From assembly GCA_031265365.1 (NCBI GenBank), contig JAISCS010000030.1, forward strand, positions 1 through 56,282: a stretch of 56,282 nt of DNA, in the 5' to 3' direction. The DNA comes from Verrucomicrobiales bacterium (lineage in GTDB: Bacteria; Verrucomicrobiota; Verrucomicrobiia; Methylacidiphilales; JAAUTS01). Numbering within the stretch: the first letter of the stretch is position 1; each line of letters begins with the position of its first letter. Positions 4,040 through 24,089 of this stretch are shown one piece after another. The position numbers were made by a program, and so were the translations under genes. The notes under the pieces are model-generated. The model was not told the origin of the DNA, ran no database searches, and worked only from the letters and a program-made list of their open reading frames with translations.

Positions 4040-5116
4040 TTATTCCGCGCCGCCAGCCTTCGCCTTTTTCGCGTCACCGTCAGCGGCGGGGCCGTCGAGC
4101 TTGGCGAGCAGGGCTTTTTCCACGCGGGCGTAGAGGTCGGCGTTGTTCTTCAACTCTTCCTTCGCGGCATCGCGGCCCTGAGCCATTTGCACGCCCTCGA
4201 ACGACAGCCACGCACCGCGTTTCTCGATAACGTTTTGCTCAATTGCGAGGTCGAGCAGCGAGCCGGTCTTGGAGATGCCCTCGTTGTACATGATGTCAAA
4301 CTCCGCCTCGGTGAATGGCGGGGCGACTTTGTTTTTCACCAGCTTGACGCGCGTGCGGTTGCCGGTGACGGTGCCGTCGGCCTGCTTGATGGCGCCGATG
4401 CGGCGGATGTCCACGCGCACGCTGGCGTAGAATTTCAGCGCCTTGCCGCCCGGCGTCGTTTCGGGGTTGCCGAACATCACGCCGATTTTCTCGCGGATTT
4501 GGTTGGTGAAAATGCAAATGGTTTTCGACTTGCTGATGATGGCGGTCAGTTTCCGCATCGCCTGGCTCATCAAGCGCGCTTGCGAACCGACCACCGCGTC
4601 GCCCATCTGCCCCTCCAGCTCGTTCTTCGTGACCAGCGCGGCGACGGAGTCCACCACCAGCACGTCAATCGCGTTGGAGCGAATCAGCGTCTCGGCGATG
4701 GTCAGCGCCTCCTCGCCGGAGTCGGGTTGCGAGACCAGCAACTCGTTCATGTTCACGCCCAGCTTCCGCGCGTAGCCCGGGTCGAGCGCGTGCTCCACGT
4801 CCACGAACGCCGCCGTGCCGCCGCGTTTCTGCGCCTCGGCGACCACGGTCAGCGTCAGCGTGGTTTTGCCGGACGATTCCGGGCCGAAAATCTCGACGAT
4901 GCGCCCGCGCGGGAAGCCGCCCACGCCCAGCGCGCGGTCAATCACGACGCTGCCGGTGGGGATGACCTCGATTTTCAACTTCGCCGCCTCGTCGCCAAGG
5001 CGGAGGATGGAGTTGTCGCCGTACTGCTTGACGATGGACTGGATGGCGAGGTCGAGGTTTTTGCGGTCGCGGCTGTCAGCGGCAGCGGCGGGTTTGTTTT
5101 CGATTCTAGGCGGCAT
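4040..5116 (-). CDS. recA: Recombinase RecA
   Basis: Walker [11 protein letters not shown] and full-length RecA similarity ([30 protein letters not shown]-like). ATG at 5116 (MPPRIENK) is preceded by aagga. Confidence 0.97.
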
Positions 5117-5444
5117 ATATAATCCTTGGTTAAATTTAGGGCAAAGATTTTCCACGCTGACGACAGGATGTCCAGCGCGAATTTGTAAAACTTTGCGTGA
5201 TATTCGTGAACAAACGGCGTGAATGTAAATATTTGTAAAACCGTCTGCATTTACTCTTGTGTCAGCGGGTTAATATTTTGGGGAAAACTCAGGTCATGAA
5301 GAAGTCAAAGCGCGACACGATAGGCGTGGATAATTTAAGGGCTGGATGAGTGGGATGGCCTGTTGTAAAATATCAAATCGCTGAAATTCTCCAGTACTTA
5401 TGGACAAGCCACATAAAACCGAAGAAGAAGAAGGAAAACGCGCA

Positions 5445-5768
5445 ATGAATAATATTAATTTGCCGCACTCAATCCCGTGTATAAAAATTCCCGATGAAAT
5501 ATGGTTTAATATTGTAAGACTAAAACGGTATTCCACAGGTTTTCTAAGTGCAGTAAGACTTATTAACGGCACAATTTTAGAAGACATGATTACCTGTAAT
5601 CGAGGATACATTTTAGGACGTTTTGCGGAAGGACTTGCGGGCGGGCATGGTCATATTGTCAATTCAATGTTGACATTTAAGACGGAAGATATTAGCGCAA
5701 TTAGAGTGCCCGCATTCCATTTTTGGCAATCTCGAAAGTGGATAAAACTGGAAGGAATTACTACTTGA
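5445..5768 (+). CDS. Hypothetical protein in an AT-rich insert between cinA and recA
   Basis: ATG at 5445 is preceded by gaaggaaaa. The GC content is low and I recognise no motif. Its orientation opposes the flanking operon. Confidence 0.4.
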   Translation: MNNINLPHSIPCIKIPDEIWFNIVRLKRYSTGFLSAVRLINGTILEDMITCNRGYILGRFAEGLAGGHGHIVNSMLTFKTEDISAIRVPAFHFWQSRKWIKLEGITT

Positions 5769-5810
5769 ACGAGGACGGTTGTTATTGGTTGTAAAAAATG
5801 AACCGTTGAC

Positions 5811-7049
5811 TCATAACTCCACCAACTTCAATCGCAGCAAATTCAGCGCGAATTGCGCGGCGGTGTGTTTGAAATCGGAGCGGTCGGGGACGAGGAGCTG
5901 ATGGTGTGTCTCAACGCGCGGCTCACCGTCAGCGGCGCGCCACGCGAGGCCAGCGTGCAGCGTGCCGACCGGTTTTCCCACCGTGCCGCCGTCGGGTCCG
6001 GCAATGCCGGTGAGCGCGACCGCCAAGTCGCAGCCGCTGACGGTCAGCGCGCCAAGCGCCATTTCGCGCGCGCACTCGGCGCTGACGGCGCCGTGCTGGC
6101 GCAAGGTTTCGCCGCTGACGTTCAACTCGTCTTGCTTGGACTGGTTGCTGTAGATGACCCAACCACGTTGCAGAACGGCAGACGCGCCGGGCACGTCAGT
6201 CAACCGGCTCGCCACCAGCCCGCCGGTGCAGGATTCGGCAGTGGCGATGGTTTTGTTTTTCGCGCGGGCGCTGGTGATGACGGCTTGCTCCATCGTCGCG
6301 TCACCGTCAGCGTAAACGGCGTCGCCGAGGATGGCGTGGGCGGTGGCGGCGGCTCGATTGACCAACGCACCGTCAGCGGCGATAAAACGCAAATCCACCT
6401 CGCCAAGCCGCGCGCAGTAGCCGATGTCAATGCCATCGCCGAGGTCGCACACGGCTTGCTCGACGCGCTCTTGCACTAACGATTCACCAATGCCGTACAC
6501 CCGCAACGTCCTGACCGTCAGCGGCGGTGTGTCGGCGAATAATTTTCGCAACACCGGCAGCGCGTAATTCTCAAACATCGGCTTCAATTCACACGGCGGT
6601 CCCGGCAGACAAAACACGTGCTTGCCGTCCTTTTGCAACCACAAGCCGGGCGCGCTGCCGTGGTCATTGGGCAACACCGTCGCCCCGCGCGGCACGAACG
6701 CTTGCGCGCGGGTTAACGCGCCCGGCACATGGTGACGCCTGGCGAAGTAGGCGTGAATTTTATCCAAAATTTCCTGATGAAACTCCAGCGGCACGTCGAA
6801 AATCCTAGCGATCAAATCGCGCGTCACATCATCCGAAGTCGGCCCCAAGCCGCCGCTGACCAGCACCACCTCGCTACGGTTCAACGCCTCACGAATAGCG
6901 TCCCCAATCGCCACCCCGTCCGGCACAATCGCCGCCCGCGCCACGCTGACACCCAGCGGCAACAGTTGTTCCGAAAAATAACCGAGGTGCGTGTTCAACA
7001 TCCGCCCCAGCAACAACTCGCTGCCGGTGTTAATGACTTCCAGCTTCAT
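5811..7049 (-). CDS. cinA: CinA-family competence/damage-inducible protein (MoCF-binding domain + PncC-like nicotinamide-nucleotide amidase)
   Basis: MKLEVINTGSELLLG...VVLVSGGLGPTSDDVT at the N-terminus; C-terminal TAESCTGGLVA motif. Confidence 0.93.
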   Translation of the reverse strand: MKLEVINTGSELLLGRMLNTHLGYFSEQLLPLGVSVARAAIVPDGVAIGDAIREALNRSEVVLVSGGLGPTSDDVTRDLIARIFDVPLEFHQEILDKIHAYFARRHHVPGALTRAQAFVPRGATVLPNDHGSAPGLWLQKDGKHVFCLPGPPCELKPMFENYALPVLRKLFADTPPLTVRTLRVYGIGESLVQERVEQAVCDLGDGIDIGYCARLGEVDLRFIAADGALVNRAAATAHAILGDAVYADGDATMEQAVITSARAKNKTIATAESCTGGLVASRLTDVPGASAVLQRGWVIYSNQSKQDELNVSGETLRQHGAVSAECAREMALGALTVSGCDLAVALTGIAGPDGGTVGKPVGTLHAGLAWRAADGEPRVETHHQLLVPDRSDFKHTAAQFALNLLRLKLVEL

Positions 7050-9511
7050 GCAAAGCCCGCCATATCCGCCAAACGAAATTCTTGCTCCGCTACCGGACGG
7101 TTGATTTTACTATCCCATGTCACCGTGAACCAGTGGGTGTCATCGTTTAAATAAAGAATCATCGCCCGCCCATAGACGCGGTGCTCAGCCAGCACTTTAG
7201 GCGCCTCATTCTTATCCGTAAAATCTCGTTTGGTATCCACCAATAATATTTTATCCTCGGTACGCCGACCGTTGATGCCAATGATGAAATCTGGGAAAAA
7301 TCCTTTGCCGTCGGTGCGCAGAACATTCACCGACCAAGGTTCATGCGGTTCATTGCGGTGCCACCACGCCACGATGTTGTTAGGCTCACGGTCTAATTTT
7401 TCAACGAAAAGACGTTCCCAAGTGTTCAAGTTTGGCGGCATGACGCCATAAACATTACGCGGCGACACTGTCAGCGGCCTGTCACTTTGGAGTTCTTTTG
7501 GTAATTCTTCAGTCTCGACAATTTCCATGTGCCGGGCCGTCGCTTCCTTTTGAGCGTTGCGCAATAAGTCAGGATACGCGGCGATGATTACATCCAAAAA
7601 ACTGGCCACTGTTTCCGGTTCACCAGCCTGCGGCATCGCTTCCTCACGCATCACCTCGCGCATTTTTTGCAACAATACACGGCGCAATTCACGGGCGTCG
7701 AACAATTGGTTTTTCAGCAAAAATTTTTGCGCTATTAGCGCCGCGTGTTCTGGTGATACGTCGGCCGCGTATTTGAATTCCTGCTGGACGACACCCGTAA
7801 AAATCTCCAAGGTGCGCTTTTCCACCGACACTTTGTTTTTTAGCGCTTCAAATAACGCGCGGGTGGAGACCTTGAACAGATTGGCGCATTCCTCCTCAAT
7901 GGCCGCATTATCAGTGCCAGCCTCTTGGGATTTGAATTTTCGCGGTACATCCCCGCGCAGTGAACAACAATGGTTCCCATTGTGGTTTTTTGTCCCGCCG
8001 CCCGTTGCGGTCGCTGACGCTGACGGTTTGGGTGCGCCGTCGAAAAATGCGCCGAAGTCAAAACTATCATTTCGTGCGCCGTTGCTGACGGTGGTGGCAA
8101 AGTTATCATGTTCAGCGTTGCCAAATCCCGCGTGTTGCGTTTCCCCTTGCAACACGAAATCAGTCTGCCCGCCATGCTCCACGCCGCTGACGATGGCAGT
8201 ACCGGCGCCAATGTTCATTCTGACCAAGGCGTTGCTGACGGTGGCGTAAGCGGTTTGGATTTGGTTGATGCGTTGCCCGGCCTCGTCAAGCCCGGTCTGC
8301 GTCTTGGGGTCGGCGAGGAATACATAACCATGAGCGAGTTCGTCCGGCAGGGTTTTATTGCGCGCTCTCGCTTGCAACAACCGGTGTGTTCGCAAAATTC
8401 GCCCCACCAACTGCACGCCAAAATCAGCGTCGCGGCTTGCCCGTGTGGAAACCAGCGTGAACGCGCGCGGGGCGTCGAAACCCAGCGCCACCGCCATTTT
8501 AAAAATCAACACCTCGCGCTGCTCGTCGTTCGCCAATGCCAGCAGACCGGCGTCCGGCTCCTCCGCCGTGTGCGTGGCGATTTGTTTCTCGGCGAAGCCC
8601 AACTCCAGCAAACGCTGCCGTAAATTTTCCACCTCACGCGCACCATTGCCCGCCTGTACCAGCAACAGCGGGGTCAACGGGATTTTTAATTCCGCCAACC
8701 GCGCCTTGAGTTGCCGGTGCGCCCGTATCGCGTCACGCAGAGCGGTGCCCGGCAAATCCACCAGCGAACGTTTTGTTTCCTCCACAAAATACGCCATGCA
8801 TTTGACTCCGCGCTTGATAAGTCCGGCGTCAACCGCGTCCGCGCGGCTGACGCTGACGCGATGCAATTCCGCGATGCCAAGCGCTTTTTCAAATTCGCGC
8901 ACGTCGCGGTCATCCGGCGTCGCGGTAACCAAAATGCAATAATCGGGGCGCAAAATTTCGTGAAAAAATTTCGCCGCCTGCGTGTCTTTGCCGAAGCCGT
9001 GATGCGCCTCGTCCACCACCACCCCGAGGCGAAAACCTTGCTCGCGCAGACTCACCGTCAGCGTGTCCACCGACGGATTGCTCTCGCTCTCGCGGCGCAA
9101 ATTGCGCCGGTCAGTCACGCGTGTCGCCACGGTTTGCCATGTGGTTACGAACACATCGCCGGCGCGATTGTTATCCAGCGAGCGGTCATGAGCCAAATCG
9201 CGCAACCGCAATCCGGCACATTGTTCGCGCAAAAAAGCCGCTGTCTGTCCAACCACGCCCTTGAACGGCGCGAACCAAAACCACACGACTTTTTCCTCGC
9301 GGGAAAAATTTTCAATAATATTCCCCGCCATCAGCGTCTTGCCGCTGCCGGTGGGAGCTTCGATGAGCAAATAACCGTTGTGCTTGACCACCGTCGCGCG
9401 CCGCCCCTCATCGTCAGCGGCGATATCCAGTTGTCGCGCTGCTTCCGTGAACAATGCAACACCACTGCCAATGGCTTTTTTCTGAAATTCGACGGGGGTT
9501 TGGAGTTTCAT
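7046..9511 (-). CDS. res: DEAH-box helicase with C-terminal PD-(D/E)xK-like nuclease module (type III restriction Res-like subunit)
   Basis: Helicase motifs EAPTGSGKT, VVDEAHHG and VTATP. The C-terminus carries FFPDFII...ILLVDTKRD. Its stop overlaps the cinA ATG (ATGA). Confidence 0.8.
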   Translation of the reverse strand: MKLQTPVEFQKKAIGSGVALFTEAARQLDIAADDEGRRATVVKHNGYLLIEAPTGSGKTLMAGNIIENFSREEKVVWFWFAPFKGVVGQTAAFLREQCAGLRLRDLAHDRSLDNNRAGDVFVTTWQTVATRVTDRRNLRRESESNPSVDTLTVSLREQGFRLGVVVDEAHHGFGKDTQAAKFFHEILRPDYCILVTATPDDRDVREFEKALGIAELHRVSVSRADAVDAGLIKRGVKCMAYFVEETKRSLVDLPGTALRDAIRAHRQLKARLAELKIPLTPLLLVQAGNGAREVENLRQRLLELGFAEKQIATHTAEEPDAGLLALANDEQREVLIFKMAVALGFDAPRAFTLVSTRASRDADFGVQLVGRILRTHRLLQARARNKTLPDELAHGYVFLADPKTQTGLDEAGQRINQIQTAYATVSNALVRMNIGAGTAIVSGVEHGGQTDFVLQGETQHAGFGNAEHDNFATTVSNGARNDSFDFGAFFDGAPKPSASATATGGGTKNHNGNHCCSLRGDVPRKFKSQEAGTDNAAIEEECANLFKVSTRALFEALKNKVSVEKRTLEIFTGVVQQEFKYAADVSPEHAALIAQKFLLKNQLFDARELRRVLLQKMREVMREEAMPQAGEPETVASFLDVIIAAYPDLLRNAQKEATARHMEIVETEELPKELQSDRPLTVSPRNVYGVMPPNLNTWERLFVEKLDREPNNIVAWWHRNEPHEPWSVNVLRTDGKGFFPDFIIGINGRRTEDKILLVDTKRDFTDKNEAPKVLAEHRVYGRAMILYLNDDTHWFTVTWDSKINRPVAEQEFRLADMAGFA

Positions 9512-9517
9512 GGGAAG

Positions 9518-10216
9518 TTAGTTTAATTGAATCCAAAAGTGGTGAAGTTGAATGGTTGGAGATTTGCAATCAGCCGTATTACGGGGGTGTGAAGAAGTTG
9601 AATATGCTAATCCATTACATTTACTAAATTGGATATTCAATAATTTTTCGCAAGGATTCCACAATACCGGGGCGTCATTTGCCAGTTGGTCAATCCAACC
9701 GTTGATAATAGGATACCAGTCTTTGGGTGTTTGTTCCTGAACATATCCAACGATAATAGCCTTTTCATGTTCTTTGCCATGTTTCCCAAGTTTAAACCGC
9801 TGAATGCCACCAGTTATTTCTCCATTTTCGCCAGTCACATATTCCCGCTCCCTGTCCTTGGTAGGCGCTGGAAGACGCTTTGCTTCTATCAAAAGGATAG
9901 GTTGTGAATAATTATAACTTCTGCCGCTAACCATCACAGTCTCTCGCGGCTTGGCGGCAATATCGACAGAGCGCGAGTTTTCTTCTTCATCCTGTTCGTG
10001 GCGAAAATATATCATGCGATGCGAAATGGTTAAAAAATCACTAAGATTACCATTTAATTTTCTTTCAGGCTTGGTGTGTTTGCCTTTTAGCGCGTCATCA
10101 TTACTCCACGGCAAAAGAGAATTATAAACAAATTCGATAGTTTCTTGGATAAGTGAATCAGGGGGAATTATTTCTTCGCTGGGGCGATTAGAAAATGTGG
10201 GGGGTGGAAGTGCCAT
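9518..10216 (-). CDS. Hypothetical PD-(D/E)xK-fold nuclease candidate
   Basis: SVDIAAKP...(about 24 aa)...ILLIEAKRL fits the D-(x)n-E-x-K pattern. The gene is AT-rich and lies 3 nt downstream of the methyltransferase gene. Confidence 0.5.
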   Translation of the reverse strand: MALPPPTFSNRPSEEIIPPDSLIQETIEFVYNSLLPWSNDDALKGKHTKPERKLNGNLSDFLTISHRMIYFRHEQDEEENSRSVDIAAKPRETVMVSGRSYNYSQPILLIEAKRLPAPTKDREREYVTGENGEITGGIQRFKLGKHGKEHEKAIIVGYVQEQTPKDWYPIINGWIDQLANDAPVLWNPCEKLLNIQFSKCNGLAYSTSSHPRNTADCKSPTIQLHHFWIQLN

Positions 10217-10219
10217 AAG

Positions 10220-13093
10220 TCAAAAACCTTGTTGATACAAATAAGCCAGTGTCTCATCCGCATCCCAAATGGCTGTGGATTTTATCCAATGGCGCAAAAG
10301 ATTTGGTTTGACGATGATTAATTTATCATTTTCAAAATAATGGAAAATTCGACTGGTTTGAAAAACAGAATTATTTTTATGAATAATAGTTTGCAATTTT
10401 TCATCCCAATTTTCCGGCCAGTCTATTTTACTGTTTTTTTCTCCAAAATAAAACGCTTGATAGGCAAGTCCGTTTGAACAATCTGACGGTCCAAGATGCA
10501 AATTGCGATAAACACTGCCCAGCAGCCATACAAACAAGTCCGCATAATCTTTTCTTATTTCACTGTTGGCAGCCTGAGTAAGAACTTTTGAATTTTGGCC
10601 GACTTGAATAAGTTCGGCCATATAATCTAAAATATCATCCAACAAGATTTTTTCCCATCGAGACAAATTCATGAAGCGCATGTCCTCAGTCCATGGAAGT
10701 TCCTCTAAATCGTGTTTCAAGATAGCGGTGGATTTTCCAACCAATACTTGCGAACTTCGCAAATAGCAAAATGCTCTTAGCATTTTTTTATTCTTCTCAA
10801 ATACTCGTGAAAATTTCAAAAGTTTTTCAGTATCAAATGATGGCGCGTTGATTGAAATGATTTTATGTAGGAACGTAAGATACCCGTCATTCTCGCCCCA
10901 AAAAATAGTCGGTAATGTCTCATTCTCCTTGATTAAAACCATTGGCGGGGTAAAACGCTCCTTACAGCGAGGCGCGGTAAATTTTTTCTCGTGAACAATA
11001 TTTATCCATTCCCTATCCAATCCTTTTCCAGTAAATGCATCTGTAGGCAAAAATGGCTTGCCGGTCAACCAGTCAGCGAATTTTCGTTTGTCCGCCTTTC
11101 CGTTTGCAGGCGGATTACCCGCAATAAATCCTTCTCCATGAGTCCAACCCTGTTCATTCCAATACATTTTTAACGTTGGATACTTGGAGATTTCCTTAGA
11201 AATATGAACCAACCGCCCGCCTCCCAAAAGATTAGCTTTCCACACTGAAGGAAATTCTTCCGCCAACCGTTGCGGCACTTGATGCCAGTCATAATGGTCT
11301 AGTTCAAAATTTACTCGTTCATGCAGGCTCTTGGTGCGGCGAAAAGTCAGATGGGAAATTTCATGTTTCTTCTCCGGCTTCCCTTTCTTGGAAAAAATCG
11401 CCACAGCCTTGGCATCCGCGCTTTCAAACAGATTCCGAATGGAGACAAAATCCAAAATTGTATCCACCGTATTCTCAGAAATCCATTTTTTAAGAAATTC
11501 TTGCGTGTTGGAATTGTAAAGAAAACCGGGCGGCTGAATAAGGCACATTTTTCCGTCCAGTGCCAGCAAGGTTGCAGCTTCCTCAATAACGCGATAAGAA
11601 ATTTGATTATCAGGAATGGGCCTCGAATTGTCTTGACGCGTTGCCCGCGCCGCCTGTGTTAATTTGGACTTGAACGGTGGATTGCCCAAAATTGTGGTAA
11701 ATCCATTTTCTGCAAGATTACGAATTTGCTCAAGGTTCGCAAATACATCACCAACGATGATATTTTTACCGACGAGCTTGTCAAACGTCAGTTGTTCCCA
11801 AATAATTCTTGGGTGCAAGGCATCGCACACTGCCAGTGCCAAATTGAACGCCGCCACATGAGCGGCATCTTCATTGAGTTCAGCGCCAAAAATGGAATCC
11901 CTCAGCATTTTTTGCAGCACCGGAACTCCCGGACGTTTTTCCCATCCATTTTGCTTTTTCCAATAATGAACCAGCCGCCGAAACGCGCCGACTAAAAAAA
12001 TTCCGGAACCGCAGGTCGGGTCAAAGATAGTCTCCCGTCCTGTGATTCTTTCATGAGGCAGCGCGTAATCCAGCATTAAATCCACAACCAACGGCGGTGT
12101 AAATACCGCGCCGTCTTTCTTCTGGGCAAAGTGTTGATACAAATGGCTAAGAACTTCGACCGGAATATAATTAAAACTGTATTGTTGCCACAAATACATT
12201 TGTTGTTTTAATGTCCGCGCTTCGATTAATGTGGCAAATTGCTTCAAATCCTCACGGGTGAATGACACCTCAATACCAAAAATATCACCGTTAAATTTAA
12301 GTTTTAATTCGTCCAGCATTTTTTCAACATCTTGGACATTGCCGCTGGCAAGAACCTTTAAAAAGCTGGTTGCGTTGTCGCTGAATTGAGCAAACCAATC
12401 TTGCGCGAACACACCCCTGTCCTCCAGATATTTTGCAAGAATGAACAATAGCAACAGGCGGCGCATCAACGGATTTTTCGCGCCTTTGATTTTTGTGTCC
12501 ACTTCAACAACCGCTTGAATCAGAGATTGGTGAGCAGCCTTGTCCGCGCATGCCCATTTTGCATTTTCAGGCGCGTCCCAAAAAGTTCCGTCACTCAGGC
12601 GATAGGCGGAAAAGCGTTTGGTTTTGGCGGCGTCAAGCTCGCGGGAAACATCTGAAATTATTTCCAGATTTTCCTTCGGATTGTATTGAGGCTGGGAACT
12701 TTTGGCATTCCAGAAATCTGGTTCCGCCGCGCATCTCAAAACATCCACGCGCGTCGGCCACTCGACATAAAACAATGGAACTTTACCATTCAGCCAAATA
12801 CGATGATGCAACTCGGCAATCTGTTTGTCTGTGTAACGATTGTCACTATTGTCAAGGATGTAAGCAACGGCTTGTGAAGAGCGACCGTCGGCAAATCGGC
12901 GAAAAAAAACGTAATCAATGGGAATATTTTTTGTTTTTTTATCCCCCTCCAAAATCCGAGCCTCATATCGAGCGGCTTCTTCCGCAATAGAACAAGGAAG
13001 CAAACGGTCATCTCTCACCGAAACCAAACCGGAAAGCTGTGGTTTGCCTTTGGGCGGCGGTGCAAGATGAAGTTGTGACAATAGCTTGTTCAT
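10220..13093 (-). CDS. Large gamma-class N6-adenine DNA methyltransferase (Eco57I/type IIG-like) with long unknown N- and C-terminal regions
   Basis: Motif I FDPTCGSGIFLVG precedes motif IV ILGNPPF. The protein is 957 aa and AT-rich. I could not recognise a nuclease motif in the N-terminus. Confidence 0.8.
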   Translation of the reverse strand: MNKLLSQLHLAPPPKGKPQLSGLVSVRDDRLLPCSIAEEAARYEARILEGDKKTKNIPIDYVFFRRFADGRSSQAVAYILDNSDNRYTDKQIAELHHRIWLNGKVPLFYVEWPTRVDVLRCAAEPDFWNAKSSQPQYNPKENLEIISDVSRELDAAKTKRFSAYRLSDGTFWDAPENAKWACADKAAHQSLIQAVVEVDTKIKGAKNPLMRRLLLLFILAKYLEDRGVFAQDWFAQFSDNATSFLKVLASGNVQDVEKMLDELKLKFNGDIFGIEVSFTREDLKQFATLIEARTLKQQMYLWQQYSFNYIPVEVLSHLYQHFAQKKDGAVFTPPLVVDLMLDYALPHERITGRETIFDPTCGSGIFLVGAFRRLVHYWKKQNGWEKRPGVPVLQKMLRDSIFGAELNEDAAHVAAFNLALAVCDALHPRIIWEQLTFDKLVGKNIIVGDVFANLEQIRNLAENGFTTILGNPPFKSKLTQAARATRQDNSRPIPDNQISYRVIEEAATLLALDGKMCLIQPPGFLYNSNTQEFLKKWISENTVDTILDFVSIRNLFESADAKAVAIFSKKGKPEKKHEISHLTFRRTKSLHERVNFELDHYDWHQVPQRLAEEFPSVWKANLLGGGRLVHISKEISKYPTLKMYWNEQGWTHGEGFIAGNPPANGKADKRKFADWLTGKPFLPTDAFTGKGLDREWINIVHEKKFTAPRCKERFTPPMVLIKENETLPTIFWGENDGYLTFLHKIISINAPSFDTEKLLKFSRVFEKNKKMLRAFCYLRSSQVLVGKSTAILKHDLEELPWTEDMRFMNLSRWEKILLDDILDYMAELIQVGQNSKVLTQAANSEIRKDYADLFVWLLGSVYRNLHLGPSDCSNGLAYQAFYFGEKNSKIDWPENWDEKLQTIIHKNNSVFQTSRIFHYFENDKLIIVKPNLLRHWIKSTAIWDADETLAYLYQQGF

Positions 13094-13105
13094 GGTGAAA
13101 CGAGT

Positions 13106-14767
13106 TTAAGTTTGCGTTTTTTTGCGAGGTAAGTCAACTGTTCCTGTCAAGCCAAATTTCCGCGCGAGGCTTTCCGGTATCGGTTCATGAGCGGCTTTGC
13201 GGGTACGAATATGGCAGCACAACAAAGCAGTTTGCCATGAATAAATCAACGCGCTGTCGCAGTTTTTCAGCACTTTGCGAAGCGCGGGAAGTATGCGTGT
13301 GGTGAAACGCGGCACATACACCAGCGCCACGCCGCCGATTTGCGCCCATGCTAAACCACCATCAGCGGCGTAGGGCGAAAGTTGGTTGTGATGCATGAAT
13401 TGCAACGAATGCCAAACTTGCGCGTGCTCGATGTTCACCAACCGTCCCGATTTGATGCGACGACAACGCAGGTAAGCAAAGTTGCCGCCAAGTCCGGGCG
13501 TATCGCCATAACCCTCAATGACACGCCGCACACGGCGGGCACACACATCACGGCATAGATTTTTGTCAGGCTCGCTGACGGTGGACTCGGTGTTGGAAAC
13601 CAAAATAAAGCGCCGCTGACCTTGGTTCTCGGCGTTGAGTTTCAAGACCGCGTGTGCCGTGGTGCCGCTGCCGGCGAAGAAGTCCAGCACGAGGTCACCG
13701 CTGACAGTAGCAATGCGGAGAATGCGTTCAATCAACGCCACTGGTTTTGGTGTGGAAAACGAACGCGCATCCTCGGCAAGAATTGTCAGAATTTCTTTTT
13801 TAGCTGTATCATTGTGCCCAACATCATCAAACGTCCACCAAGTTGTTGGCACCACACCGTCAGCGTTGCGGAGCATGTGCTTGTAACGCTTGAATGATGG
13901 CGTTTTACCGTTGCCGTCTTTACCCCAATAAATCAAGCCATTGTCTGCGTTGCGGAAATGTTCTTCCTCTGAATACGCCCAAACACGCGTTTTTTTGGGC
14001 CAAATTCTTTTGCCGGTTTTTGGTTGAATGATTGGATAATAAAGATTAGGGCGTTCTTCCGCACTCTTCGGGCACGTGTAGTCGCTGCATCGAAAAATAC
14101 CTTTTTCGTCATTGAATCGATACATATCGTCCTTGTCAGCGGTGCGGGGTAAAAGATTGCGCCGCCACAAGTCGGACATTTGATAAACCAACACGTATTC
14201 GTGCATCGGTGCGATGGTTTTGTGGTCGTTGGATGATGCGTAACGCTTCTGCCAAATACACGACGCGACAAAATTATTCTCGCCGAACACGCGGTTCATC
14301 AACAACCTCAGCGACGCGACTTCATTGTCATCAATCGAAACAAAAATCACGCCGTCCTGCCGCAACAAATCCTTCGCCAGCGTCAGTCGCTGCCACATAA
14401 ACTCCACCCATGTCGAATGCCGCCACGCATCGTTAGCGTCCACGAAACGGTCATTATACACAAAATCGCGATTGCCGGTGTTATAGGGCGGGTCAATGTA
14501 GATACATTTCACTTGCCCGGCATAAGTCATACGTAGATGCCGTAGCGCATCAAAATTGTCACCCTCAATGATGAGATTGTTCCAAGGTTCACCGCTGACA
14601 CTCAACTCCGGGTCAAGGTCGAGCGCAACGAAATCAGAATTGAGCGCACGGTCACGCTCAATCTCACTGGCTTCCCAAACCAAGCCAAAGCGCGTGGCGT
14701 CGCGCCGGTCGCGCGCCTCAAGCAAGCGTTGTAATTCATTTCTGGACAAATGGTCATATTTTCCCAT
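13106..14767 (-). CDS. mod: Beta-class N6/N4 DNA methyltransferase, type III Mod-like
   Basis: Motif IV IYIDPPYNTGN precedes motif I LDFFAGSGTTAHAV. ATG at 14767 (MGKYDHL) is preferred over the ORF maximum at 14806. Confidence 0.85.
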   Translation of the reverse strand: MGKYDHLSRNELQRLLEARDRRDATRFGLVWEASEIERDRALNSDFVALDLDPELSVSGEPWNNLIIEGDNFDALRHLRMTYAGQVKCIYIDPPYNTGNRDFVYNDRFVDANDAWRHSTWVEFMWQRLTLAKDLLRQDGVIFVSIDDNEVASLRLLMNRVFGENNFVASCIWQKRYASSNDHKTIAPMHEYVLVYQMSDLWRRNLLPRTADKDDMYRFNDEKGIFRCSDYTCPKSAEERPNLYYPIIQPKTGKRIWPKKTRVWAYSEEEHFRNADNGLIYWGKDGNGKTPSFKRYKHMLRNADGVVPTTWWTFDDVGHNDTAKKEILTILAEDARSFSTPKPVALIERILRIATVSGDLVLDFFAGSGTTAHAVLKLNAENQGQRRFILVSNTESTVSEPDKNLCRDVCARRVRRVIEGYGDTPGLGGNFAYLRCRRIKSGRLVNIEHAQVWHSLQFMHHNQLSPYAADGGLAWAQIGGVALVYVPRFTTRILPALRKVLKNCDSALIYSWQTALLCCHIRTRKAAHEPIPESLARKFGLTGTVDLPRKKTQT

Positions 14768-14846
14768 GCGACATTTGAAACTAGCCAGTGAACACTGGCA
14801 CTTCAATTACTTATTACCACTGATTATGACTGGCACATACAAAAAA

Positions 14847-15800: not shown

Positions 15801-18449
15801 TCATGGTTTTAACTGTCTGGCTAAAAATTCGCGGGCATCTTGTTCCAGTTCCAACACCGTCGGCGGTGTCAAATCGGGATAATTTTTCCACTCTACCTGA
15901 ACGTCAGCGGCTTGCAACAACGTAGCGAAATGCACGGCGGTTGCATAACGGTCCATGTGATTGTAACGGCAATCATCATCAAATTCCGAGGCGCTAATAT
16001 GAAACGCCACTTTTTTTAACGCCGAAAAAGGACGCAATCCGGGTTCTGCCAGTCTGGGACAACCAAGATTGCTGGGACGCCCCACCGCCACTGCCGCGAC
16101 CAAATCAGGACGCCAGCGTGCAAAGCGAAGCGGAAATCCACTGCCAGAGGCGTAAGTGTAAAATAATAACTGTTCTTTTTGGATGGCGCATTGCTGGTTG
16201 ATTTGCGCCAGACCATCTAACAACGCTTGTCCCGACCAAACTTGCGCCGCGATATAATAACTGTACGTATCGTTTTTTTGCCAAGCCCATGACGAAGTTT
16301 TGAACTGCGGCATGACTACAACTAGATTGTGCGCGTCGGCAAATTTCGCCCACGCGCTATCTAGCCGGAGGTAGGAAAGATTTTCCGCGTTGGAACCCGC
16401 GCCTAATACTAGCACCCGACGCGGCTGGTCACCGTCAGCGGCGGATGGCACGCGATAAAAAATTCGCAATTCTGGATTGTCCATGTTGGGCGTGGGGACT
16501 GAAATCACGCGCACTTGCTCAGGCAAATTCGCGCGTTGCGGGTCAAAACGCAAATCTTTCAACAATCGGACCGACTGCCGTGCCAAGTCACCGCTGACAC
16601 CTAAATCCATGTCCCCGTTCGTCAATTTTTCATCGTAACGCTTCTTTATCAGGGGAATGGTCTCATTGTTGCTTAATTGCAGGGCAAGTTGGGCTTGTTG
16701 CACGGCTTCAGGAAAACGCCGGTTCATCCGATGAATTTGCGCGCGGCAAAAGGCGGCGTTGGCTTTGACAAGGTTATTAGTGTAACCGCGGTTCAAATCG
16801 GTGACTGGCGCGTGCTGGATTTTTTCAAGCATCGCCTCCGCTTCAAGATAACGACCGCCATGCAACAATGTCAGTGCCTGTTCATATAAAAAGCCGAATT
16901 CCTTGGAATTAAAATCACCGCTATCGAGCTTCTCAAAAGTTTGTGTTTTGAATTTGAGATAAAACTCCGCCAATTCGGACTGGGTAAAAGCTCGGTGCAT
17001 ATCTTCACTACGCAGTAATTTCCACCAATCGGCGGGATTGAATTTCCCAGAATTGGCGTTGGCTTCCGCAATTGTGAGTTGTTGCTCGAAAAAACCACGC
17101 TCAAAAATATAGCGAATAAAATTGAATAATTCGTTGCCATGTTGCCGCTCGGCTTGCTCGCGGGTTAGAGTTTGCCACGGAATATACCGCTGTAGCTGAT
17201 TACTCTGACGCTGACGACCTATCCGCTGTCCGGCTTTTTCCACGCACTCAGCCAATTGTTTCTGCAAGGCGGTGTACTGTTGGTCGGAGACAATTTCAAT
17301 AAACGCGCGTTCAGTTAACGAAAATATGAACTGGCTAACCGAGTTTTCAAGCTGGTTGAGTTGCTGCTCGGAATCCACCCGTTCAAGCCAGAATTTCAAG
17401 CCATTCGCCGTGTAATTGATTTGCCGCTGGTAGGACGCCTGTTCTTCTTTGCCATTGAACGGATATTGAATTGGCAAGCCGAGTGTGGCGTTGTGTTCGT
17501 ACAATGACTGTCCTGCCACCCAAGTGGTCATGGCGATTGAATTGGAGAATTGTGCCAGCCATTCATCGGGTGGCACCGCGCGAAAACTGCCTTTGCTGTT
17601 AAACAGAATGGCGGCCTGGGCTTCCTTGATTTTGTCCTCCGGCGGGACACACGAATAAGACTGCGCTTCATTGAAAAACCAACGGGTAAATTCGTTCAAG
17701 CAAGGAATTTTTTGCTCTTTTTTCCATGTCAGCCGGATTGTGTGCGGATAAGGTTTCCAATCTTGACTGTCAGCGGTCATCTCGTCCCCATAGTCACCCC
17801 GCCAGTGGTCTCCCCAATATTCAGCCGTGGTGTCACCGTCAGCGAGGCGCGCCAGATTTTGCGTGGACTTGGTGTATTTGGCGATTTTGAAAAGGTCGGG
17901 AAAATTGGCGGGATTCGCCTGTTTAATATCTGCCAGCAAACTGGCGCATTGGTGGATAAGTTCCCGGCGGGACATTTTCCCTTGCGTATCGAATAACAAC
18001 GAGTAGTGCGCGACCAATGCCGGCGCGTCTTGGTCATTGTCAGCGATAAAATTTTTAAGCAAGGTGACAAAATCCGATTTTTGACCGGAATAAATTCTGC
18101 CGACATGGTCGCTGCCGATGTAAGTGTAAATTTGCGTTAGTTCCAGCCAGCGTCGCTGTGGATGACCTGCCGACAATTTCGCAATGCAATAATCACGCAA
18201 AGCGTTGCTCAAAAAACCTTCAACACCGGCGCGTTTATTATTGTTTTTTTCAAAACTATATGACGGCAACATGACATTGGCTGGGTCAGTTAAAGCTAGT
18301 TTGAGCAGTGCGACGTTAACATCGCTACCGTTTGCTTGCCGCAAATTATTTTCTAATTCTACGATAGAAGTTTCAGCTTTCGCCGCTGACGCTGCCGGTG
18401 CAACAGTCGAAGATTCATGTGCCATCCCACCCGCGCAAAAATTTTTCAA
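15801..18449 (-). CDS. Large unknown protein: novel N-domain + TPR-like region + degenerate alpha/beta-hydrolase domain (module gene B, copy 1)
   Basis: Paralog of 19937-22654 along its whole length. The C-terminal domain aligns with the esterase at 14847-15748 (WSGQALLDGL vs WSGKALLDTL), but the nucleophile elbow reads YASGSG. Confidence 0.8.
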   Translation of the reverse strand: MKNFCAGGMAHESSTVAPAASAAKAETSIVELENNLRQANGSDVNVALLKLALTDPANVMLPSYSFEKNNNKRAGVEGFLSNALRDYCIAKLSAGHPQRRWLELTQIYTYIGSDHVGRIYSGQKSDFVTLLKNFIADNDQDAPALVAHYSLLFDTQGKMSRRELIHQCASLLADIKQANPANFPDLFKIAKYTKSTQNLARLADGDTTAEYWGDHWRGDYGDEMTADSQDWKPYPHTIRLTWKKEQKIPCLNEFTRWFFNEAQSYSCVPPEDKIKEAQAAILFNSKGSFRAVPPDEWLAQFSNSIAMTTWVAGQSLYEHNATLGLPIQYPFNGKEEQASYQRQINYTANGLKFWLERVDSEQQLNQLENSVSQFIFSLTERAFIEIVSDQQYTALQKQLAECVEKAGQRIGRQRQSNQLQRYIPWQTLTREQAERQHGNELFNFIRYIFERGFFEQQLTIAEANANSGKFNPADWWKLLRSEDMHRAFTQSELAEFYLKFKTQTFEKLDSGDFNSKEFGFLYEQALTLLHGGRYLEAEAMLEKIQHAPVTDLNRGYTNNLVKANAAFCRAQIHRMNRRFPEAVQQAQLALQLSNNETIPLIKKRYDEKLTNGDMDLGVSGDLARQSVRLLKDLRFDPQRANLPEQVRVISVPTPNMDNPELRIFYRVPSAADGDQPRRVLVLGAGSNAENLSYLRLDSAWAKFADAHNLVVVMPQFKTSSWAWQKNDTYSYYIAAQVWSGQALLDGLAQINQQCAIQKEQLLFYTYASGSGFPLRFARWRPDLVAAVAVGRPSNLGCPRLAEPGLRPFSALKKVAFHISASEFDDDCRYNHMDRYATAVHFATLLQAADVQVEWKNYPDLTPPTVLELEQDAREFLARQLKP

Positions 18450-19950
18450 TCTGCCCGCGCCATTCCCCAGGCTTCACCAGCAGCGGCAACTCGGCGCTGG
18501 CGGTCAGCGTGCCGTTCAGCGTGTCGCGCAAAAACCAGCGAACCACCGACCGACCGTCGCTGATGGTGGTGCGATTAAAAAAACTCGGCGCTTGCTCCCA
18601 GCGGGGACCGTCAGCGTCACTGAGTCCCGTGAGCCAGTCGTATTCGCGACAAATTTGCGCGGGATTTTCCGGCAAACAAATTTTTTGTCCGGGCAACGAA
18701 TTCAGAACGTCAGCGGTCAGCACGGACAATCGCGCGCACAACTCTGGCGCGGCGCCGCTGACGCCCAGAAAAGCAACCGCGTCGCTGACCGTGGGCGCAT
18801 CGCTGTTGGTGGACACGGAGTAATCGAAAAACACGCGCGCATAACGGCGCATGGCGTCACCGAGCGGCGTCAGCGCCAGCGCGTCGTAACAACGCGCCTC
18901 CCACTCGTAGGCTTCCCTGAACTGGCGGTCGAGCATATAGGCGCGGCTGAATTCGTTGGTCGCCTCGGCGAATTTGCCCTCGTCATAAAGTTTGAGTCCG
19001 CGATAAAACGGTTGCAATGCCTCGACGCTGACGCTGGGCAAATACGGCTGCACGTTTTTCTCCGGCGTGCCAAACAACGGAAACAGCCACGATTGGATTT
19101 GGTTGACCACCGAAACACTCGCGCCGGAAAAATCTTTCGAGGCGACAAGCTGGCCGTCAGCGGCGTTGACGAGCCGCAGTTCGCAATGGTCACCGTCAGC
19201 GGGCGCGAGTTGCAAAAAATAATCCGCGCCGAGAAACGAGTTGTTAGGTATCGCGTCGCGCATCCCGCGCTCAGCCTCGTTGCGCCCGATGACAATCTCC
19301 TGCGTCAGCGCGCGGTCAAGCACGATGAAGCCGCTGACCGTCAGCGCGTCGCGCAGCCGCGTGGCGAGGATGAAAACTTGGTCATTCGCCAACCCGCCGG
19401 TCGGCTCAATAATCGCGACTCGCGGCGTGTGCCTGGCGAAGGTTTTCCCCGCGATATTTTTGAACAACCCGCGCGTCACCTCCGCCAACCGCGCGGCATC
19501 AGCGAGCCAAACATCTTTAACCTGCCCCGACGCGAGCAACGTCCCACGGTCAGCGGCGACAATTTCCACCAACCAATTACCGACTGAACTTTCTCGAAAA
19601 TGCAAATAATAAGTAATCACCGGCAACGGTGGCAACGGTCGCCCACCATCAGCGTCACCGCGCAATGCCAACTCCTCCCGTTCTCGCAACACCCGCGCAA
19701 ACTCCGCCCGCTCGACAACCTGAAACTCCGCAACCTTGCCCAACTCCGTCGTCAGCACACTCTGCCACCTCTCCCCGTCGCTCCCGCTGACACTGATCGC
19801 CACACGCGGCACCTCCGCGCACCAACCGCTGATGGTGAACCCTAACAACAACAAACTCACACGCAGCCATGGAATCACGAGGATTTTTCCAATCAAACAA
19901 TTCTTCCCTCGGATTCTCGTGCCTTCGTGGGAGACTTTACTTTTTTCCAT
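18415..19950 (-). CDS. Secreted unknown protein with repeated alpha/beta modules and TPR-like helix pairs (module gene A, copy 1)
   Basis: Paralog of 22667-24085. Conserved leader SHEGTRIRGKNCLIGK...WLRVSLLLLGFTISG. PRVAISVSGSDGERWQSVL... resembles CsgG/LpoB-type modules (by eye, low certainty). Confidence 0.75.
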   Translation of the reverse strand: MEKSKVSHEGTRIRGKNCLIGKILVIPWLRVSLLLLGFTISGWCAEVPRVAISVSGSDGERWQSVLTTELGKVAEFQVVERAEFARVLREREELALRGDADGGRPLPPLPVITYYLHFRESSVGNWLVEIVAADRGTLLASGQVKDVWLADAARLAEVTRGLFKNIAGKTFARHTPRVAIIEPTGGLANDQVFILATRLRDALTVSGFIVLDRALTQEIVIGRNEAERGMRDAIPNNSFLGADYFLQLAPADGDHCELRLVNAADGQLVASKDFSGASVSVVNQIQSWLFPLFGTPEKNVQPYLPSVSVEALQPFYRGLKLYDEGKFAEATNEFSRAYMLDRQFREAYEWEARCYDALALTPLGDAMRRYARVFFDYSVSTNSDAPTVSDAVAFLGVSGAAPELCARLSVLTADVLNSLPGQKICLPENPAQICREYDWLTGLSDADGPRWEQAPSFFNRTTISDGRSVVRWFLRDTLNGTLTASAELPLLVKPGEWRGQIEKFLRGWDGT

Positions 19951-22654
19951 AATTATTTTCAGTTAATTGGCTGGCCAAAAATGTCCGCGCGTCATTTTCC
20001 AATTCTGTCACCGGTGGCGATTGCAAACCGGCGTAATTCTTCCATTCCGAGGCAACGTCAGCGGCTTGCAGCAGCGTGACAAAATGCACGGCGGTCTCGT
20101 AACGATTATATAACACGGTCGTCTTGTCGCGGCATTGGTCGTCGTCAATCTCCGCCGCGCCGATGAAAATTTTCACCGCTGACAGTGACTTCAATGGTTG
20201 CAAACCCGGCTCGACAAATCGCGCCAATCCACCCTGACTGGGGCGACACAGCGCGACGGCGGCGACCAAGTCCGGCCGCCAGCGCGCAAACCGGCAGACG
20301 AATCCCGTGCCCGGCGCGTAGCCGTGGAACAGCAAACCGTCTTTTTGCAGCGGGCACCGCTCATTGATTTTATCCAATCCCGCCAAAAACGCCGCGCCCG
20401 ACCAAACCTGCGCGCTGGCATAATGACAAAACACGCTGGACGAATTCCAGTGGTATGTCTGGGCGCGAAACTGTGGCGCGACTAACACTAAATTGTAAGC
20501 GTCAGCGAACCGCGCCCATGCGCCACCCGGTTGCAGGTACGACAAAACCTCCGCGTTGGAGCCGACCGCCAGCGTCAACACGCGACGCGACTTGCCATCA
20601 GTGGCGGCGGGCACGCGGTAAAAAATCCGCAGCTCGGGATTGTCCAAATTCGGCGTCGGCACCGTCACCACGCCGACGCGGTCGGGCAATTCGGCACGTT
20701 CCGGCTGGAACCGCATATCGCTCAAAACCCCCGCCAGTTTCCGCGACAAATCGCCGCTGATGCCGCGCTCGGTCACTTCGTTTTCCCATTTCTCCTCGTA
20801 ACGGCGGATAATTCCTTTGAATGTCCCGCCATCGGCGAGTTGCAAGCCCTCGCGTAATTTTTGCACCGCTTCCGGTACGCGACCGTCAGCGCGGTAAATC
20901 TGCGCCAACCGGTACGCGGTATTGATACGAATCAAGTCGTTGTTGTAGCCGCGGTTCAAATCCGTCACCGGCAGCGCCTGCAATTTCTCCAACAACTCGA
21001 CGGCGGCAGTCCGCTCGCCGCCGTACAACAGTGTCAGCGCTTGCTCAAACAATCGGCTTAATTCCTTGCCCGTCAAATCGCCACTGCCGGCGAGTTTGAA
21101 CGACGCCGTGTGCAACTTGAGATAAAATCGCGCCAGTTCAGGATACGTGAATGTCTCGTCCAGTTTTTTTGTCCGCAGCAAATTCCACCACGCGGCGGGC
21201 TTGAAGTCACCGTCGGCGGTCGCCGCTTGCGCGGCATCCGACAACTTGTTGGTAAACCAATCGCGGTTCAACGGTTCCTCGTCAAAATTGTACAATATGT
21301 GCGCGGTTTGCCCGCCAACTTTTTCGCGCGTCAACTCCGGCCACGACAAATGGCGTCCGGGCTGTTTGCTAGGGTCGTCACGACCGGCGCGTTGGAACGC
21401 TTGCGCCGTTAGCGCTGTCAATTTTTGCCGCAGCGTGACATATTCCTCATCGGTAAAAATTTCCAATAATGGTCGCTCGTTCAACACGCCAAGCAAACGG
21501 TTGACATAATCCGTGTACCGCAGCACGTCCTCGTGGCGTGTGCGCGCCAGCCAGTATTCAACACCGTTGGCGACGTATTCAATCTGCCGCCGATACGACG
21601 CCAGTTCCGCCTTGCCGTCGAAACGGTGCTGAATGGGCAGACCGAGGTCGCGGCAAATTTTGTCCAACGAGGAAACGGCAAACGCGGTCATCGTCAGCGA
21701 ATTGGGATTTTGCGCCAGCCACTCGTCGCGGGCGATTTCCGTAAAACCACCGCGCCCGTAAATCAACAGACAACTCCGCGCCGCCGTGATTTTTTCCACC
21801 GGCGTCATTTTGAAAAATGAAACAATATTGGTGCGCCACGGCACATACGGCTCCAACGTCGGCGTCGGCTTGCCGCGCTGCCACGACAAACGGATGCTGC
21901 GCGGACAAGGCAGTGAGTTGCTCCGGCGCTCATCCTTGTTCATCGGCTCCATGTCGAACTCAATTCCCGTCTCGCCGCTGGCGATGCGCGCGAGGCGGAG
22001 GATGGCTTCGGTGTAATCGGCGACGCGGCCTAATTCCCTGAATTCGCCGCCGTCAGCGGCGCGCAAATCCGCCAGCAATTTCCCGCTCGTCGCGATTAAC
22101 TCCGGCAACGGCATTTGTCCCTGCGTGTCGTACAACAACGAATAACGCGCCAGCAAACCGGGCAAATCCGCGCCGCTGACGGTGATAAAATTTAGCAAAA
22201 GTTTAAGATAATCTTCCTGCTTGCCCGAAATGATTTTCCCGCGCGGGTCGTGGGGCAGATAACTATAAATCCGCATCAGTTGCAACCAACGGCGTTGCGG
22301 ATTATCCACGGGTAATTTTTCCACCAACCAATCGCGAAAGGCGAAGGTTAAAAACTCGCCGACATTGAGCCGTTGCAGATCATCCGCCTTTTCCAAACTG
22401 AACGACGCCAGCAGCGGATTAGTCGGGTCAACCGCCGCGAGATTGAGCAGCGCGACGTTGGCGTCGAGACCGCGAGCGCCGCGTAATTTTTGTTCCAGTT
22501 CTTCTATGAAAGTCCGGCTCGGCGGCGGCGGTTCTTCCACATACACGGAAAAAGGATTAAACACGGGTCGCAAAAAATCTTTGATTTGCGCCGACCAATC
22601 CTGTGGATTGGCGGTTAGCGTCAATTCTTTTTCTTCAAGCCGGTTGTCAAGCAA
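19937..22654 (-). CDS. Large unknown protein: novel N-domain + TPR-like region + degenerate alpha/beta-hydrolase domain (module gene B, copy 2)
   Basis: Colinear with 15801-18449. The elbow position reads GYAPGTG, with no Ser. Confidence 0.8.
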   Translation of the reverse strand: MLDNRLEEKELTLTANPQDWSAQIKDFLRPVFNPFSVYVEEPPPPSRTFIEELEQKLRGARGLDANVALLNLAAVDPTNPLLASFSLEKADDLQRLNVGEFLTFAFRDWLVEKLPVDNPQRRWLQLMRIYSYLPHDPRGKIISGKQEDYLKLLLNFITVSGADLPGLLARYSLLYDTQGQMPLPELIATSGKLLADLRAADGGEFRELGRVADYTEAILRLARIASGETGIEFDMEPMNKDERRSNSLPCPRSIRLSWQRGKPTPTLEPYVPWRTNIVSFFKMTPVEKITAARSCLLIYGRGGFTEIARDEWLAQNPNSLTMTAFAVSSLDKICRDLGLPIQHRFDGKAELASYRRQIEYVANGVEYWLARTRHEDVLRYTDYVNRLLGVLNERPLLEIFTDEEYVTLRQKLTALTAQAFQRAGRDDPSKQPGRHLSWPELTREKVGGQTAHILYNFDEEPLNRDWFTNKLSDAAQAATADGDFKPAAWWNLLRTKKLDETFTYPELARFYLKLHTASFKLAGSGDLTGKELSRLFEQALTLLYGGERTAAVELLEKLQALPVTDLNRGYNNDLIRINTAYRLAQIYRADGRVPEAVQKLREGLQLADGGTFKGIIRRYEEKWENEVTERGISGDLSRKLAGVLSDMRFQPERAELPDRVGVVTVPTPNLDNPELRIFYRVPAATDGKSRRVLTLAVGSNAEVLSYLQPGGAWARFADAYNLVLVAPQFRAQTYHWNSSSVFCHYASAQVWSGAAFLAGLDKINERCPLQKDGLLFHGYAPGTGFVCRFARWRPDLVAAVALCRPSQGGLARFVEPGLQPLKSLSAVKIFIGAAEIDDDQCRDKTTVLYNRYETAVHFVTLLQAADVASEWKNYAGLQSPPVTELENDARTFLASQLTENNYGKK

Positions 22655-22666
22655 ATCATGCCGCTG

Positions 22667-24085: not shown

Positions 24086-24089
24086 AATT

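Follow-up and report, generated by a model that had tools for sequence, protein, structure and literature searches.

Restriction–modification (R-M) units have been documented as insertions within the genes of other R-M systems and within operon-like structures, frequently at a start or stop codon, and the M genes of type III systems are among their targets (Furuta, Abe and Kobayashi 2010, PMC2853133). Defense systems have also been described inside other defense loci: a systematic "guilt by embedding" survey reported them within Hma, BREX, DISARM, and type I loci (Payne et al. 2024 preprint, 10.1101/2024.01.29.577857), and TgvAB is embedded in a type I R-M system (PMC11411939). Here, we analyzed a contig of 56,282 nt from a Verrucomicrobiales metagenome-assembled genome, referred to as the window, which contains a cluster of four packed genes named A to D (7046–14806). 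We conclude, with a probability of about 80%, that this locus consists of two independent R-M-type systems, in which a methyltransferase gene and its small partner gene (B–C) are nested inside a type III mod–res pair (A–D) as a result of insertion at the mod–res junction. Considering the documented R-M insertions and embedded defense systems, the composite in the window would be a new example of a known phenomenon. Its features are as follows (aa, amino acids):

13106–14806, minus strand: A, type III Mod; open reading frame (ORF) of 566 aa starting with TTG at 14806, with a probable true ATG at 14767 (553 aa) from alignment with relatives
13106–13141, minus strand: left junction, an 11-codon C-terminal extension of Mod, in which the native stop codon is replaced
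10220–13093, minus strand: B, predicted gamma-class N6-adenine methyltransferase, 957 aa
9518–10216, minus strand: C, putative PD-(D/E)xK endonuclease partner of B from an unannotated family, 232 aa
9518–13141, minus strand: inserted cargo segment of ~3.6 kb, comprising 48 nt of upstream sequence, B, and C, assigned from GC content, GC content at third codon positions (GC3), and related mod–res loci that are free of B–C
7046–9511, minus strand: D, type III-like Res, a superfamily 2 (SF2) DEAH helicase with a C-terminal PD...DxK motif, 821 aa

An initial annotation, made from the letters of the window, had described four co-directional genes with 3–12-nt spacers. This layout was confirmed, with all genes on the minus strand and spacers of 12, 3, and 6 nt between A and B, B and C, and C and D, and the motifs it listed for the four proteins are all present in the translations. 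It had offered two readings of the cluster, a type II/IIG-like R-M system inserted into a type III system or a single multi-component defense system. The former is borne out by the autonomy of B–C, the adjacency of mod and res elsewhere, a step in GC3, and a displaced mod stop codon, as detailed in the following sections.

Independent occurrence of the outer and inner gene pairs

Comparison with PADLOC profiles, one of the checks proposed in the initial annotation, placed A with confidence (MTase_III, 6e-109), B over part of a profile (REase_MTase_IIG, 2e-33), and D weakly (REase_III, 5e-6 and 5e-4), and gave no match for C. Protein A contains the motif YIDPPYNTG followed by DFFAGSGTT, which is the order found in beta-class enzymes, and matches PF01555 (9e-42) as well as Mod proteins of solved structure (6K0W, 2e-60; EcoP15I Mod, 4e-43). 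Aligned with the mods of uninterrupted relatives, it is an intact protein with a variable central region. By these matches, A is a bona fide type III Mod, with the predicted activity of a beta-class N6-adenine methyltransferase. Protein D carries the motifs APTGSGKT, VVVDEAHH, and FFPDF...LLVDTKRD and matches the Pfam families ResIII (1e-11) and DEAD (1.5e-7). Across 25 homologues, conservation is complete for the Walker A, DEAH, and TATP motifs, the arginines of motif VI, P740-D741, and K761, and reaches at least 90% for D759.

D has over 2,400 homologues, of which the 120 listed share 56–63% identity with it. Their loci were collected from four annotated contexts and 80 metagenome loci, and 66 had enough DNA to score mod. 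Each of the 66 has a co-oriented mod gene upstream of its D-family res; the gap is less than 50 nt in 53 of them, and the mod–res spacer measures 4–10 nt in most relatives. Neither B nor C occurs in any of these 66 related loci. The outer pair A–D is autonomous and is found elsewhere as adjacent mod and res genes. Some Res homologues (P0179, P0184, P0195, P0202, P0204, P0220, and P0224) are ~100 aa longer and contain an N-terminal DUF433 (PF04255) or DUF4926 (PF16277) domain; these fusions look like small junction genes that were joined to res.

For the inner pair, 80 genome loci were fetched via C, 78 of which contain upstream DNA. B is located directly upstream of C on the same strand in every one of these 78, and the spacing between the two genes is −13 to +8 nt in 68 of 69 loci. 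All-versus-all clustering of 956 neighboring ORFs revealed B (76 loci) and C (73 loci) as the only conserved genes, with the next cluster reaching 8 loci. D has no match in the 80 C loci and A has one, located downstream of C (L013); about 75 of the 78 B–C loci are without a mod or res neighbor. The pair is distributed across Planctomycetota, Verrucomicrobiota, Acidobacteriota, Nitrospirota, Proteobacteria, and Agrobacterium Ti plasmids, and conjugative plasmids of Agrobacterium and Cereibacter carry it next to SIR2 and TIR genes. B–C is an autonomous, widespread two-gene module of a methylase and a putative nuclease. As a tightly linked methyltransferase gene and putative endonuclease gene that are inherited as a unit, the pair has the gene organization of a type II system. 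No characterization of the B–C family was found in the resources queried, which did not include REBASE.

The initial annotation had called C a small nuclease-fold gene. The protein contains the motif VDI...LLIEAKRL, and its family comprises 844 cluster representatives at 50% identity. Residues E51, H73, E74, D85, E111, and K113 do not vary among 26 diverse homologues. In the AlphaFold2 (AF2) model (predicted local distance difference test, pLDDT, 87; predicted template modeling score, pTM, 0.85), secondary structures follow the order helix–strand–strand–strand–helix–strand, which PD-(D/E)xK enzymes would be expected to have, and the motif residues map to helix 51–65, strand 86–90, and strand 108–115. 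Support for the earlier proposal comes only from the invariant E/D/ExK residues and the compatible secondary-structure order; a structural counterpart in Foldseek searches was not obtained. Pfam, NCBIfam, and PDB sequence and profile searches gave no match for C either, and no phage-borne copies were found.

Several B–C loci have additional features. In the clade nearest to the window, a LexA-like gene (LexA_DNA_bind and Peptidase_S24, ~200–290 aa) is located directly upstream of B (L087, 1701–2312; L171, 5348–6004; L172, 5129–6004), and the same is seen in L001, L003, L004, L005, L007, L026, L027, and L050. This gene often overlaps the B start by 4 nt, sometimes with an integrase adjoining, and may be an SOS-responsive controller of B–C; the copy in the window is without it. 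On the Agrobacterium/Cereibacter plasmids, a conserved ORF of ~61 aa precedes B (L088, 3820–4005; L089, 3840–4028) and SIR2 and TIR genes follow C. In L057, L071, and L080, B is split or interrupted by inserted DNA and C is retained, and these may be decaying copies.

Probable insertion of B–C between mod and res

Base composition sets B and C apart from A and D. GC content is 0.43 in B and 0.41 in C versus 0.51 in A and 0.55 in D, and GC3 is 0.42 and 0.36 in B and C versus 0.57 and 0.63 in A and D; cinA, recA, and fumC have values of 0.77–0.84. The gene boundaries also carry a trace of the event. Mod proteins of uninterrupted relatives end with ...HEAIPESLARRFG(L/M)KG (...FGLxG), followed by the stop codon and, after a further 4–6 nt, by the start of res. 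The Mod of the window reads ...HEPIPESLARKFGLTG and then continues for 11 extra residues (TVDLPRKKTQT) into the insert before it stops, and this displaced stop locates the left junction near 13141. At the opposite edge of the insert, 6 nt separate the C stop codon from the D ATG. Composition and junction both point to an insertion of B–C exactly between mod and res.

Nesting of B–C was also found in two other loci. L085 and L086 contain the closest relative of B (66% identity). In L085, a 3′ remnant of mod (2346–2540; ~65 aa with in-frame stops, ending with ...IPEAIPETLARKFGMRG and a stop) directly precedes B, and a remnant of res (7020–7154) preserves ~31 N-terminal residues (MRVKTLRTFQETAVASGISLF...). 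One extra gene, encoding 240 aa with HATPase_c_4 and a winged helix–turn–helix, lies between C and the res remnant. In L085, an intact B–C is thus enclosed by the decayed remains of a type III system from the family seen in the window, which shows that B–C needs neither mod nor res. WYL-domain genes are present upstream in this locus. The other case is L172, from a complete genome (1–12979; B 63% identical), with the gene order SNF2, DUF4391, Mod (622), RhuM, LexA-like, B, C, and Res (1007, ResIII and RE_endonuc). Its type III host family is unrelated to the mod/res family of the window and is of the kind with an extra upstream helicase, which has been described (PMC8259958). Other close relatives of B–C are not nested. 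As to the recurrence of the four-gene order, a further check proposed in the initial annotation, the order is seen in 0 of the 66 D-family loci, and outside the window B–C lies between mod and res in the decayed shell of L085 and in the different type III family of L172.

Other genes occupy the same position in about 7 of the 66 D-family loci. This cargo includes PDDEXK_3 proteins (three loci), ParE with a Phd-like antitoxin (two loci), a GNAT protein with an ASCH-like protein, and an IS200-like transposase with repeats; in L146, a Kinase-PolyVal protein adjoins an apparently truncated mod. Loci with cargo between mod and res are L093, L095, L158, L134, L145, L100, L150, and L146. Selfish or defense cargo lands repeatedly at the mod–res junction, which behaves like a hotspot.

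These observations bear on the reading in which all four proteins form one integrated defense system, with Res and C acting jointly under the guidance of two methyltransferases. Such a system would account for four co-directional genes spaced 3–12 nt apart and for three independent cases (the window, L085, and L172) in which B–C is flanked by mod and res. The initial annotation had noted the tight spacing; because ParE/Phd and other unrelated cargo is packed equally tightly into the same junction elsewhere, the spacing is no sign of functional unity. The single system is further contradicted by the lack of a mod or res neighbor in about 75 of 78 B–C loci, the lack of B–C in 66 of 66 D-family loci, the persistence of an intact B–C in L085 where mod and res have decayed, the unrelatedness of the two type III families that host the module, and the GC3 difference between inner and outer genes. 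Since the inner pair is widespread without mod and res and the outer pair occurs elsewhere as adjacent genes without B–C, we regard the single multi-component system as refuted and assign it a very small residual chance.

Several points weigh against the interpretation as two nested R-M-type systems. A profile search of the PDB with D does not reach EcoP15I Res, to which D has no detectable sequence similarity, and a Pfam scan of D gave no PF19778 (RE_endonuc) match. The label "type III" for D draws on its architecture and on its conserved linkage to a bona fide Mod, and for these reasons we call it a divergent type III family. A Foldseek search of the C model against PDB and BFVD returned nothing at E < 0.01 (best E = 0.017); the PD-(D/E)xK fold is consequently a putative assignment, made from the E..D..ExK motif and the secondary-structure order of the model. 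The insert is flanked by no significant direct repeat or target-site duplication (p = 0.24 versus shuffled controls), and the best candidate, TTAAACT...CCATGA before the start codons of B and D, is no better than shuffled sequences; no mobility gene marks the insert. Three nested cases among ~90 B–C loci are more than naively expected, so some functional synergy of B–C with type III systems may exist. Finally, all four proteins are known from their genes, and the roles given to them here are predicted ones.

If the locus is composed of two nested systems, Mod would methylate one strand of its own site and Res would act as an ATP-dependent helicase–nuclease cutting unmodified DNA, as suggested by family membership. 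The B–C cassette would have landed at the mod–res junction and displaced the mod stop codon, leaving both outer genes intact, and all four genes are therefore probably co-transcribed. No internal terminators or strong promoters were detected at the gene junctions; promoter-like matches lie inside the AT-rich B gene, with total counts close to the shuffled expectation. B would be a monomeric m6A (N6-methyladenine) methyltransferase of the type IIG/PglX kind with its own recognition region, and C would be its partner endonuclease. Together, they would most likely constitute a type II-like R-M system, with B protecting the DNA of the host and C cutting DNA that is unmethylated.

Possible organization of the B–C module

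Protein B contains the motif DPTCGSGIF followed by GNPPF, the order of gamma-class methyltransferases, and matches the Pfam families N6_Mtase (PF02384, residues 320–605), Eco57I, and MmeI_Mtase. The initial annotation had given it about 330 N-terminal and about 400 C-terminal residues of no assigned family; these ends do lack annotation, and their sizes are revised to ~320 and ~350 residues. Four parts can be distinguished: a conserved, unannotated N-terminal domain (~59–135), a helical linker, the methyltransferase core (~330–610), and a C-terminal DNA-recognition-like region. In Foldseek searches, the AF2 model (pLDDT 82) matches CamA (5e-16), BrxX/PglX (2e-13, ~950 columns), and BpuSI (3e-12), as well as type ISP and type I methyltransferases. 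From its motifs and family matches, B is a gamma-class m6A methyltransferase that resembles type IIG and BREX PglX enzymes.

Membership of B in three described families was considered and rejected. As BREX PglX, it scores 28–53 bits with the NCBIfam BREX methyltransferase models versus cut-offs of 400–900, and no PglZ or BrxC/PglY neighbors are present in the window or in the 80 loci. As mad2 of MADS, it reaches 44.7 bits with NF047738 versus a cut-off of 720, and no conserved neighbors were found. As a DISARM member, its scores are far below the cut-offs, and the partner genes are absent.

How B and C would work together can be pictured in two ways, which we weigh about equally and each of which we hold to have slightly less than an even chance. 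B–C may be a split type IIG/IIL enzyme, in which C has no specificity of its own and docks on the N-terminal domain of B, so that B, through its recognition region, sets the site of both methylation and cleavage. This arrangement is suggested by the position of the N-terminal domain, which sits where MmeI/BpuSI-type enzymes carry a fused nuclease. The PADLOC IIG profile aligns with B over positions 177–557 of 1022 only, leaving its nuclease and recognition parts unmatched, and because the alignment starts at position 177 the nuclease part appears to be missing from B. The N-terminal domain is the best-conserved region of the protein (0.60 identity), yet it has no conserved ExK across homologues, and hhalign detected no homology between this domain and C (probability <1%). 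The Foldseek alignments with BpuSI and BrxX, which extend over ~950 columns, and the small size of C and its constant translational coupling to B also agree with a split enzyme. Less easily reconciled with it is the C-terminal region of B, which is only moderately variable (pairwise identity 0.44–0.49 versus 0.56–0.60 elsewhere) and shows no hypervariable recognition domain. As enzymes with shared recognition usually diversify far more, this moderate variability fits better with a restriction endonuclease (REase) that recognizes its site separately. Moreover, no fusion of C with a methyltransferase was found in the top 150 of the 844 representatives.

The other possibility is a classical type II R-M system, consisting of C as an independent homodimeric REase and B as a large separate methyltransferase. 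C has a size typical of type IIP REases and an invariant E..D..ExK motif, it is always a stand-alone protein (in those top 150 representatives), and the recognition region of B varies comparatively little between phyla. However, the relatives of B (CamA, PglX, MmeI/BpuSI, and type ISP enzymes) are monomeric enzymes for asymmetric sites, and the conserved extra N-terminal domain of ~130 aa and the linker of ~200 aa would be left without a role. It has also to be considered that C may lack nuclease activity and B may be a regulatory or orphan methyltransferase, in which case the pair would not be a restriction system. The lack of a match of C to any sequence or structure library searched speaks for this view, but the catalytic-type residues of C are invariant, its linkage to a DNA methyltransferase is strict, and B–C is found in defense islands, on plasmids, and embedded in R-M loci; we therefore judge it unlikely. 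A more far-reaching proposal joins two claims: that B–C represents a new broad R-M class, in which a methyltransferase–recognition protein of the type IIG/PglX kind swapped its fused nuclease for a docking domain, recruiting a separately encoded nuclease from a fold family that has no Foldseek match to solved structures, and that the type III mod–res junction is a dedicated cargo landing pad. Both holding together is less likely than not, with odds somewhat below those of either arrangement of B and C.

Genomic setting and comparison with known systems

The four-gene cluster is bordered by cinA and recA on one side and by an alpha/beta-hydrolase gene upstream:

5811–7049, minus strand: cinA (Pfam CinA, 2e-49)
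4040–5155: recA, which follows cinA (Pfam RecA, 2e-130)

As stated in the initial annotation, no PglZ, BrxC, DUF1998, or PLD genes flank the cluster, and BrxL and BrxA are absent from its flanks as well. The cinA ATG overlaps the D stop codon (ATGA, 7046–7049), so that the entire acquired island reads directly into cinA–recA. The spacer between cinA and recA (5156–5810) is low in GC (0.47 in the interval 5001–6000, which contains it), and its sole ORF, of 105 aa, has no Pfam match and an implausible sequence. A perfect inverted repeat with 7-bp arms (GCCAGTG-TT-CACTGGC) occupies 14782–14797, ~15 nt before the ATG from which mod probably starts, and could serve as an operator or form a hairpin in RNA. 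No RNA genes were detected when the full window was scanned with Rfam and for tRNAs. Further along, a two-gene unit is present in tandem duplication (15801–24118): long stretches are similar between its 882-aa and 905-aa proteins, and likewise between those of 511 and 483 aa. The 882-aa protein, the one member scanned, has no Pfam match.

For annotation, these results mean that four packed genes correspond to two systems and not to a new multi-gene defense system. The breadth of the unannotated B–C module recommends it as an inexpensive target for cloning and methylome studies. Type III loci are an untapped place to look for new defense genes, since the embedding survey did not cover them, and if the mod–res junction is indeed a landing pad, "guilt by embedding" could be extended to type III loci.

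Among known systems, the outer pair is closest to type III R-M systems such as EcoP15I and EcoP1I. A shares with them the beta-class order of DPPY before FxGxG and matches solved Mods (4e-43 to 2e-60), D is likewise an SF2 DEAH helicase with a C-terminal PD...DxK motif, and the mod-to-res order is conserved in the relatives. Unlike these systems, D is shorter (821 aa), shows no detectable sequence relationship to EcoP15I Res, and matches REase_III at 5e-6, and mod and res of the window are separated by 3.6 kb of foreign genes. B resembles type IIG/IIL enzymes (MmeI, BpuSI, and Eco57I) in uniting a helical linker, a gamma-class methyltransferase, and a C-terminal recognition region in one chain, and it matches MmeI_Mtase, Eco57I, the PADLOC REase_MTase_IIG profile (2e-33), and, by Foldseek, BpuSI (3e-12). 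It differs from them in its N-terminal domain, which has no D...ExK nuclease motif and is unaligned to the IIG nuclease part, and in that the nuclease-type motif is found on the separate and unrelated 232-aa C. With BREX PglX/BrxX, B shares a Foldseek alignment of ~900–950 columns (2e-13) and weak NCBIfam and PADLOC PglX matches, whereas it scores 53 bits versus a cut-off of 400, is ~250 aa shorter, and has no PglZ, BrxC, BrxL, or BrxA nearby.

With regard to the insertion itself, the window resembles the R-M insertions of Furuta et al. in that the event took place at a start/stop boundary and left the target genes intact; those cases (PMC2853133) show long target duplications, in contrast to the window insert, where none is detectable. 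Finally, the locus is similar to embedded defense genes such as PrrC, TgvAB, and BrxU, in which a self-contained system lies in the same orientation inside the operon of another system. It is distinguished from them by its host, a type III R-M system outside the embedding survey, and by its cargo, a methyltransferase–putative nuclease pair.

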